64,000 nt of DNA, taken from positions 1 through 64,000 of IMG/VR virus record IMGVR_UViG_3300033072_000249; one strand, 5' to 3'. Of this stretch, positions 8,381-10,552 are shown piece by piece. Below the pieces are notes generated by a model. That model made no database searches, was not told where the DNA came from, and saw only the letters and a list, made by a program, of their open reading frames with translations. Position numbers and translations under genes: made by a program. Position 1 is the stretch's first letter, and each line of letters begins with the position of its first letter. Origin of the DNA: a virus. Taxonomy: Duplodnaviria > Caudoviricetes.

Positions 8381-8723
8381 AGCCGTGAACGCTGCCAAGC
8401 TCGACCGGATCAACGACAACGTCGATGACCTGAAGAAGGCGGTGGGCGAGCTGACCAAGTCGGTCAACCGCCTCGCCATCATTGAGGAGCGCCAGGCCAC
8501 GACATCGGACAGCCTGGGCCGTGCCTTCAAGGAGATCGAGAAGCACGACAAACGGATCAACACCCTGGAACTGTCCCAGCCCATCCAGAAGCAGAGCTCC
8601 GACATCGTTCAGAAGACGGTGGCCATCATCCTGGCGGCAGTCATTGGTGCTGCGACCGGATCGGCGATCACCTCGCGCAAAGACCCGGTGCATATCCCGG
8701 GCCCAGTTCAAGGGGCCAAGTGA
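8349..8723 (+). CDS. coiled-coil protein with C-terminal TM (holin-like/lysis-associated)
   Basis: Heptad-rich body then VAIILAAVIGAATGSAI. Confidence 0.7.
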   Translation: MTDEQHHKVTEAVNAAKLDRINDNVDDLKKAVGELTKSVNRLAIIEERQATTSDSLGRAFKEIEKHDKRINTLELSQPIQKQSSDIVQKTVAIILAAVIGAATGSAITSRKDPVHIPGPVQGAK

Positions 8724-8935
8724 TGGAGCCGTACCAGATCCGCGTTGTCCAGGAGAAGCAGGAGCTCGACCAGAAGCTGGAGAAGCTGGTCACCTACCTG
8801 GACTCGGCGCACTTCGCGAGCCTGCCCACTGAGGAGAAGTGGCTCATGCGCGAACAGGCCCAGGTCATGGCCGCCTACAGCCGCATCCTTGGCTCGCGCA
8901 TCCAACGATTCAACCAACCGAAGGCGCCCGCATGA
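8720..8935 (+). CDS. crAss001_48-like small helical protein
   Basis: YQIRVVQEKQELDQKLEKL..LMREQAQVMAAYSRILGSRI. Confidence 0.7.
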   Translation: MMEPYQIRVVQEKQELDQKLEKLVTYLDSAHFASLPTEEKWLMREQAQVMAAYSRILGSRIQRFNQPKAPA

Positions 8936-9066
8936 CCCGACTGATCCTGATCCATAACGGCCACGCCGCCGTCTACGACGGCCGCGAGCAGAAGGCCATC
9001 TTCGAGACCCCCAACATCAACCGCGAGGACGTCGCTGTCCTCATCAACTTCAAGGAGTCCCCGTGA
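8932..9066 (+). CDS. small hypothetical protein
   Basis: ATGA and GTGA coupling at both ends. Confidence 0.55.
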   Translation: MTRLILIHNGHAAVYDGREQKAIFETPNINREDVAVLINFKESP

Positions 9067-9584
9067 GCAACATCATCAAACCCACCGTCGGCCGCAAGGT
9101 CTGGTATCGCCCCTCGAAATGGGATCGCGAAGGCCGTGGCGGCATGCAGGTCGCCTGCGATCAGTCGGATACGACCAAGTTTCAGCCGTTGGACGCCACC
9201 ATCATTGCAGTCTGGGGCGACCGCATGGTCAATGTGATGGTCACCGACATCATGGGGCGACAGTTCCCACTGACATCGGTCAAGCTGATGCAGGAGGGTG
9301 ACCTGTTCCCCGTGGATGCGAATGGCGAAAACACTGGCGGCTACGTCGAGTGGATGCCGTACCAGACCGGCCAGGCCCGCAAGGATGCCGCCATCGACCG
9401 CGCCATCATCGCCACCACGCCCATCGGCGCATCTCAGGCAGCCCCCATCCACATCGACGCATCGAACCCCTCGATCCCGCCCGCACCTGCTGTGGTGGCT
9501 CGCGGCTTCTCCCTGGACAGCGACGCTCCCCTGGTTGGCGCATGCGACCTGTCGGGCGAAGGCACTTGCGAGGCGTGCCAGTGA
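9063..9584 (+). CDS. conserved phage protein with C-terminal C-x7-CEACQ tail; paralog of 54377-55147
   Basis: MSNIIKPTVGRKVWY..LDATIIAVWGDRMVN; ends GACDLSGEGTCEACQ. Confidence 0.85.
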   Translation: MSNIIKPTVGRKVWYRPSKWDREGRGGMQVACDQSDTTKFQPLDATIIAVWGDRMVNVMVTDIMGRQFPLTSVKLMQEGDLFPVDANGENTGGYVEWMPYQTGQARKDAAIDRAIIATTPIGASQAAPIHIDASNPSIPPAPAVVARGFSLDSDAPLVGACDLSGEGTCEACQ

Positions 9585-9631
9585 TGGAAGGCTCTGGATA
9601 CGCTTTGACGATGGAAGGATGGGGCCTCTGA
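9584..9631 (+). CDS. 15-aa minigene A (MEGSGYALTMEGWGL)
   Basis: TGATG coupling at both ends; paralog at 9884 with synonymous divergence. Confidence 0.6.
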   Translation: MEGSGYALTMEGWGL

Positions 9632-9894
9632 TGCTGATCACCGGAGAGAAACAACCCCTGACCGAGCACCACCAGGCCGTCATCGGCCAGCTGCGCATGG
9701 CCACCACCGAGATCCTGCGCCTGCGTGGCCACGATCGTGAGGCGTCCGCCCTGGAGGCCAAAGTGCTGCGCTCCAACCCTGAAGCCGTCAAGTGGATGGA
9801 GCAGATGGAGAAGGACATCGCCACGGCTCTCACCGTGGGGCAGAGCATCACCCGGGCCCGCGCCCTGGAGGAGGACGACAGCCATGGCCTGTGA
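9631..9894 (+). CDS. hypothetical protein (87 aa)
   Basis: TGATG start at 9631; strong codon bias. Confidence 0.75.
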   Translation: MLITGEKQPLTEHHQAVIGQLRMATTEILRLRGHDREASALEAKVLRSNPEAVKWMEQMEKDIATALTVGQSITRARALEEDDSHGL

Positions 9895-9931
9895 AGGAAG
9901 TGGATGCGCCATCGAGGGTTGGGGTCTGTAA
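9884..9931 (+). CDS. 15-aa minigene B (MACEGSGCAIEGWGL)
   Basis: GGAGGAGG 9 nt upstream of ATG; paralog of minigene A. Confidence 0.6.
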   Translation: MACEGSGCAIEGWGL

Positions 9932-9946
9932 TGCGAGAAGGCTGGG

Positions 9947-10552
9947 ATGACTGAAAAGAAGTTCGTCGACTGGGAGCTGATCGAGCGCGACTACCGCGCC
10001 GGCCTGAAGACCATCCGCCAGATTGGCGAGGAGCATGGCGTCTCCCACACGGCAATCCAGAAGCGCGCCAAGAAGGACGAGTGGACCCGCGACATCGCAG
10101 AAAGGGTTCAGCAGCGAGCAAGAGATCTGGTTGCCAAGAAAGAGGTTTCCAAACAAGTTGCCACGGAGCGGAAGCTCACGGATATGGAAACCGTGCGCGA
10201 GTACAGCGAGGTGGTGTCCCGTGTTGACCTGCGTCAGCGCGAAGACGTGCAGATGGCTCTGGACAACGCCCTGGGCATGTTGCGGGAGCTGGTGGCCTTG
10301 GCTGACCCAAAGTTCCGCTCCATGCTCGAGTGGATGGCTGAGAACTTCGATGAGACGACCCCGGCCTTCAAGGATCGCGCCAACGAGACCTACCGCTACA
10401 TCATCGACATCGCCGGCCGCGTGAAGATGGCCAAGGATCTGGCCGCCGTTCACGGTGTGTATGTGCCCATGCAGCGCAAGATGTACCGCCTCGACGACGA
10501 CGATGCGAAGAAGAGCACGGTCGATGACCTGCTGGAGGCCATCGGCGCGTGA
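9947..10552 (+). CDS. terS: terminase small subunit
   Basis: N-terminal HTH DWELIERDYRAG..IRQIGEEHGVSHTAIQKRAKKDEW; directly upstream of TerL. Confidence 0.85.
   Translation: MTEKKFVDWELIERDYRAGLKTIRQIGEEHGVSHTAIQKRAKKDEWTRDIAERVQQRARDLVAKKEVSKQVATERKLTDMETVREYSEVVSRVDLRQREDVQMALDNALGMLRELVALADPKFRSMLEWMAENFDETTPAFKDRANETYRYIIDIAGRVKMAKDLAAVHGVYVPMQRKMYRLDDDDAKKSTVDDLLEAIGA

Follow-up and report, generated by a model that had tools for sequence, protein, structure and literature searches.

Paired fifteen-codon frames ahead of a phage terS gene are most likely RBS-rich junctions of a swapped cassette rather than a conserved pair of peptide genes

Results

Genes and small frames upstream of terS

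The stretch of DNA analysed here (the window) comprises the first 64,000 nucleotides of a virus record of 85 kb with 63% GC. Among GenBank phage records, terS alone was matched, at 75% identity. Relatives were found via terS homologues; the contigs identified in this way share the gene order of the window (lysozyme, small genes, a sequestin-like gene, ORF173, ORF87/115, terS and terL). In the window, the following features lie between ORF173 and terS:

9063–9584, plus strand: ORF173, with a phrog_2293-type N-terminal domain, a Pro/Ala linker and the Cys tail GACDLSGEGTCEACQ before the stop, which overlaps the ATG of minigene A (TGATG).
9584–9631, plus strand: minigene A, 15 codons encoding MEGSGYALTMEGWGL and a stop, built of a tandem pair of SD-like units, ATGGAAGG, at positions 9584 and 9611.
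9614–9618, plus strand: SD-like GAAGG within A, 12 nt before the ORF87 ATG (anti-SD duplex −8.4 kcal/mol).
9631–9894, plus strand: ORF87, 87 aa; relatives have an 87-aa or a 114/115-aa form, differing in the N-terminal segment.
9867–9874, plus strand: GGAGGAGG within ORF87, 9 nt before the ATG of minigene B (anti-SD duplex −12.1 kcal/mol); relatives show GGAAGAGG here.
9884–9931, plus strand: minigene B, encoding MACEGSGCAIEGWGL and a stop; its first 11 nt overlap the end of ORF87, the remainder lies in a window-specific insert, and it ends in TAATG.
9895–9936, plus strand: the window-specific insert of 42 nt, a putative A-like junction copy separating the ORF87 stop from the conserved terS RBS.
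9904–9954, plus strand: an alternative small frame, MRHRGLGSVMREGWDD and a stop, with AAGGA at 5 nt from its ATG; the final 8 codons are those of mini-ORF C.
9931–9954, plus strand: mini-ORF C, 7 codons (MREGWDD) and a stop, opened by the ATG of B's TAATG.
9937–9949, plus strand: RBS and start of terS, GAAGGCTGGGATG; the same unit precedes terS in contig L096 and other genes in G001/L082 and L069.
9947–10552, plus strand: terS, the terminase small subunit (phrog_1206, E 3.7e-46).

The original prediction had placed two conserved, translationally coupled 15-codon minigenes on either side of an 87-aa ORF ahead of terS. Both frames are present and flank ORF87 as claimed. Their junctions were verified in the sequence: A is bounded by TGATG twice, at the 5′ end with the stop of ORF173 and at the 3′ end with the start of ORF87 (9631), and B has its SD GGAGGAGG at 9 nt and ends in TAATG. 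The predicted coupling into terS stands only in part. The TAATG is real, but its ATG opens the 7-codon C and not terS, whose own ATG (9947) falls inside the frame of C and has a GAAGG 5 nt before it, also within C. The frame at 9904–9954 has a better SD spacing than B.

The genes around these frames were also compared with their homologues. The Cys tail of ORF173 ([AV]CD[LMI]S..(0-3)C[ED][AS]CQ-stop; window 9530–9584) is optional in the family but well conserved where present, in about 24/120 homologues (among them L006, L070–L081 and L096), and a tail of this type sometimes stands behind a Gp49-like domain (PF13876). ORF87 had no Pfam or PHROG match and is hence without a functional lead; its family is tiny: a set of 1.84 billion cluster representatives contained a single real one (P0121). 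Comparing window 9631–9700 with L070 3645–3790 and L096 2501–2640, we found that both ORF87 forms begin with the same four codons (M[LV]IT) and share 65 residues at the C-terminus, and that the 114/115-aa form carries an extra Cys/His-containing N-terminal segment (e.g. GCAHKERCF), with the exchange point just past the junction. Further upstream, at 8720–8935 and immediately before the variable cassettes, lies a 71-aa protein matching Pfam PF21825 (crAss001_48-related / Sequestin, E 1.8e-18) that all relatives keep.

Likeness of A and B at the DNA level

After the Met, 10 residues of A and B match when two in-frame gaps are allowed, and 7 of these use different codons (GGC/GGA, TCT/AGT, GCT/GCC, GAA/GAG, GGA/GGT, GGC/GGT, CTC/CTG); A stops with TGA and B with TAA. 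The A–B pair has the top score (47) when the 20,841 pairs of stop-proximal 15-mers less than 1 kb apart in the window are ranked, and this score was reached in 5/250 Markov-1 randomised windows (about 2%). At the DNA level, no other part of the window matches the A region better than the B region does, a score equalled in 0.35% of shuffles. A generic direct-repeat finder did not list A/B among its top families, and the similarity is seen only with gapped alignment. The DNA alignment runs from the codon that ends the upstream gene (GCCAGTGA / GCCTGTGA) as far as one base beyond the downstream ATG (ATGC).

The likeness of A and B is thus real and beyond chance, but it is not limited to the peptide frame, since the DNA alignment runs past the ends of the ORFs and prefers a 4-nt gap. 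Under this DNA-optimal alignment, the pairing of Ser TCT with AGT, one of the synonymous differences on which selection for the peptide had been argued, is lost.

Reiterated RBS-like units

In these peptides every "EGxG" is encoded by GAR GGN NNN GGN, in which an SD-like GARGG precedes a spacer that ends in GG (GARGGNNNNGG). Five GARGG-type units lie at 9587, 9614, 9893, 9914 and 9937. For the form GARGGNTGGG, 5 matches were counted in the window where 1.4 would be expected, three of them in 9614–9946, and its longer form with a stop/start overlap occurs in the whole genome only at A and B. Overall, 400 nt of this region contain 8 SD-like sites, compared to a mean of 3.1 (2.5x the window average). 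An 18-nt RBS/start unit, GARGGNTGGGATGRCTGA, is found once per genome and at non-homologous junctions in the relatives: it precedes terS in the window and L096, precedes a 135-aa gene in G001/L082, and in L069 follows ORF173. In L082, the junction motif occurs where no mini-ORF start exists.

We also searched for such sequences beyond the clade. A degenerate pattern, EGSG[YC]A-x(1-3)-EGWG, gave 0 matches in IMG/VR; in JGI metagenomes and GTDB genomes, all of its matches were repeats or due to chance. A general phage motif "EGWGL-stop" was rejected: the 32 IMG/VR matches are about the chance expectation, and none has EGSG upstream. Contig L094, which looked similar to the A/B element, proved to be unrelated. 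Of the exact IMG/VR matches to EGWG[LF]-stop with an ATG overlap, 11/32 close long, unrelated ORFs that are coupled to a following gene, which marks an EGWG[LF] C-terminus as a common outcome of an SD combined with a stop/start overlap. As a separate observation, four IMG/VR contigs (L044, L051, L058, L065) encode proteins of 700–830 aa in which a diverged low-complexity region is followed by a conserved C-terminus, [GS]FAREGWGL or TREGWGL, and all four are stop/start-coupled to a conserved gene of 94–110 aa (MARPSESAEQLRERIL...); these ends may reflect a linear motif at the C-terminus or, alternatively, a constraint from the RBS.

Minigene A in related contigs

The reading frames are not kept across homologous loci: A is kept only in L070–L074 and B in no relative examined. 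Five related contigs (L070, L071, L072/73, L074) keep A at its full 15 codons, bounded by TGATG on either side. In L069, the relative closest in backbone (96% identity in terS, 99% in ORF173), A is replaced by MEGWDD and a stop, followed by a 39-aa ORF, and TGATG is still present at the ends of this collapsed form; this arrangement is consistent with a 27-nt deletion between the two internal ATGGARGG repeats of A. Contigs L096–L099 are without A, and a CEACQ-tailed ORF173 is joined there to a 76%-identical ORF114 by TGA-GCCAGGAT-ATG, a junction that holds no mini-ORF.

The comparison of A covered five distinct sequences from six loci (L072 and L073 are identical). In its own frame, A shows 5 synonymous third-position events against 1 conservative one (Leu/Val); the two remaining frames give 1:5 and 0:6. 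Given that 29/135 possible single changes in A are synonymous, our own arithmetic yields P ~0.002 for at least five of six, a value based on six events only in one closely related, recently exchanged module (94–98% identical). Of the variable sites, 4/6 lie within or adjoin GARGG units. On this substitution pattern, A is probably translated, and some amino-acid constraint is allowed.

Minigene A as a relic of an ORF173-type C-terminal tail was considered and rejected, with 0/120 homologues ending in EGWGL; in other phages, the next gene follows directly on the tailed ORF173 homologues. Inspection of the ORF173–A junction by eye revealed no slippery heptamer for a frameshift fusion.

Minigene B as an insert ahead of the terS RBS

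Minigene B is absent from all relatives examined (L069–L074, L082, L096–L099, L075/76, L107 and the P0003 contig). In L069–L074 and L096–L099, ORF87/114/115 stops 5–11 nt before terS, and in the P0003 contig the gap from the upstream gene to terS is 5 nt only; other relatives carry different genes upstream of terS (HNH, T5orf172, the 135-aa gene). L096 reads CAT GGG CTG TGA TGAAGGCTGGGATGGCTGAA, and the window reads CAT GGC CTG TGA, then the 42-nt insert (9895–9936), then GAAGGCTGGGATGACTGAA. From this comparison, the terS RBS is conserved and B is an insert ahead of it. The insert itself aligns to A.

The start of B has another source. Its Met comes from CAT-G and its first Cys from CTG-TGA read as TGT, both at the 3′ end of ORF87, and the Leu-stop codons of ORF87 (CTG TGA) are present in all relatives. 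In L096, the end of ORF114 and the terS RBS alone give "MGCDEGWDG" and a stop, so that M, C and EGW can arise as by-products. Read from these sequences, the ATG and first Cys of B derive from the end of ORF87 and not from an ancestor common with A.

The C-terminal redox tail of the class I ribonucleotide reductase (RNR) large subunit is CESGACKI in E. coli NrdA. A resemblance of B to such a tail (CEGxxCxI) had been proposed, and CEGSGCAI does share the C-x4-C followed by x-I. Unlike the RNR tail, however, B continues for 7 more residues after the Cys pair, which is therefore not C-terminal, takes its first Cys from the CTG TGA overlap and is not conserved. The RNR large subunit (PF02867) was not found in the 85-kb genome, with control genomes positive, and the comparison fails.

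Mosaic ancestry of the A–ORF87 segment

Identity to two relatives differs along the locus. ORF173 is 97–99% identical to L069 and 72–77% to L071, and terS is 94% identical to L069 and 81% to L071. For the segment in between, L071 matches A, the N-terminal part of ORF87 and its C-terminal part at 94%, 93% and 98%, respectively, and L069 gives no full-length match for A and the N-terminal part and 93% for the C-terminal part. The profile changes over at about 9584 and between 9894 and 9947. These differing identities indicate that the segment from A to ORF87 is a cassette of different ancestry, with A at its left breakpoint and the B insert at its right.

The region of the packaging genes appears to be a hot spot for mobile elements. 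In relatives whose terS is about 70% identical (L107–L111, ENA contig ERZ27275305), a T5orf172/MUG113 (GIY-YIG-like) or HNH_3 endonuclease gene lies directly upstream of terS (about 1990–2504 in L107). The L107 terL has 770 aa compared to 505, and an intein or another insertion may be present.

Discussion

Both frames are most likely RBS-rich junction DNA at the ends of a swapped cassette rather than a conserved pair of peptide genes. More specifically, and with somewhat better than even confidence, we propose that A is a ribosome-relay mini-cistron at a cassette junction, that B is a diverged copy or scar of such a junction, and that RBS-like units join the cassettes. Under this proposal, the variable region from the lysis genes to terS would consist of small gene cassettes joined by a reiterated unit, namely GARGG, 4–6 nt ending in GG(G), and then an ATG or a stop/start overlap. 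Minigene A would form the 5′ junction of the A–ORF87 cassette: ribosomes ending ORF173 at its TGA would restart on the overlapping ATG of A, read its 15 codons carrying GAAGG, terminate at TGATG and restart on ORF87, leaving the peptide as a by-product. Minigene B would be a diverged copy of an A-type junction at the 3′ recombination breakpoint of the cassette, its frame open by chance through the CAT-G in ORF87, and it may hand ribosomes via the 7-codon C to terS, which would keep the coupling across the insert.

The relay proposal is favoured by the breakpoints at A and B, by the density of SD-like sites and by a substitution pattern in A that fits translation. Some observations count against it. 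The 12-nt spacing from GAAGG to the ATG of ORF87 is long for an SD, and relatives join the same genes without a mini-ORF, so that a relay would be dispensable. Moreover, the 5:1 ratio goes beyond what an open frame and an SD alone would demand, which hints at amino-acid constraint. That ratio is an argument for A, and possibly B, as a functional 15-residue peptide (EGSGxA..EGWGL) under purifying selection, for example a packaging or lysis regulator or perhaps a partner of the ORF173 Cys tail; the top-ranked A–B peptide similarity and the fact that both A/B indels are in frame point the same way. We nevertheless regard such a peptide as quite unlikely. The same ratio comes from a small sample of one recently exchanged module, and DNA-level constraint on the GARGG units, in or next to which most of the variable sites lie, could mimic synonymy. 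In addition, B occurs in no relative examined and takes its N-terminus from the ORF87 overlap, A is absent or collapsed where the flanking genes persist, and three degenerate whole-collection scans gave no homologue. The inference of peptide selection in the original prediction thus agrees with the pattern within A but not with an A/B likeness that extends past the ORF ends, and a conserved twin pair does not fit the relatives. The narrower version, in which A is a true micropeptide, MEGSGYA[LV]TMEGWGL, that is under purifying selection and moves with the ORF87/115 cassette, and B is a recently acquired paralogue, we consider very unlikely; if true, the micropeptide could act on packaging initiation or with the redox-like ORF173 Cys tail.

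It is also possible, though doubtful in our view, that A and B are neutral recombination scars of duplicated RBS fragments with no effective translation, their open frames being incidental at 63% GC, where stop codons are rare. The position of both frames at mosaic breakpoints would suit this explanation, as would the junction motif of L082 and the relatives that dispense with both. However, all five copies of A have an exact TGATG at either end, which also persists in the collapsed L069 form, the substitution bias is confined to the frame of A, and a ribosome terminating ORF173 sits right on the ATG of A. A ribosome-arrest or attenuation leader for ORF87 and terS, acting through EGWGL-stop, has only its position upstream of coupled genes and the common C-terminal pentapeptide on its side and appears highly improbable. 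Neither a stalling motif nor RNA structure was found for the stalling leader once suggested: no stable or conserved structure was detected at the locus (folding z-scores +0.2, −0.5, +1.5 and +0.2), and Rfam gave no match at E ≤ 1. Furthermore, the stops differ (TGA and TAA), L069 has DD in place of GL, and the motif is absent in L096–L099. We know of no arrest motif that resembles EGWGL-stop.

The proposed ribosome relay has parallels in described systems. TGATG and TAATG (−1 spacing) are an enriched coupling motif, and short ORFs with ribosome delivery as their sole proposed role have been described (PMC12548453). The layout of A resembles the leader cistron of the bicistronic design (BCD; PMC5995908), that is, a short ORF with a stop overlapping the next start and, putatively in A, an internal SD for the next gene. 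In contrast to BCD, A is natural, lies between two genes rather than in a 5′ leader and has a stop/start overlap with the upstream gene as well; its SD-like site lies at 12 nt from the ATG, and its coupling is predicted. Recombination between diverged sequences is discussed as a source of phage mosaicism in an earlier account (PMC2327257). Like phage mosaic boundary sequences, short stretches held in common at which modules are exchanged, A and B stand at the breakpoints of a swapped cassette and the 18-nt unit recurs at different junctions, whereas the units here are RBS-like and can also be read as mini-ORFs. We infer that RBS-like units may promote recombination.

This locus is a cautionary case for the search for phage micropeptides: the in-frame reading of reiterated SD-like units yields "conserved" Gly/Glu/Trp peptides whose differences look synonymous. 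For annotation, A should be entered as a probable coupling ORF, and B not as a gene. If the relay holds, A would be a natural counterpart of the synthetic bicistronic design, and accessory cassettes could enter ahead of terS with translational coupling intact.
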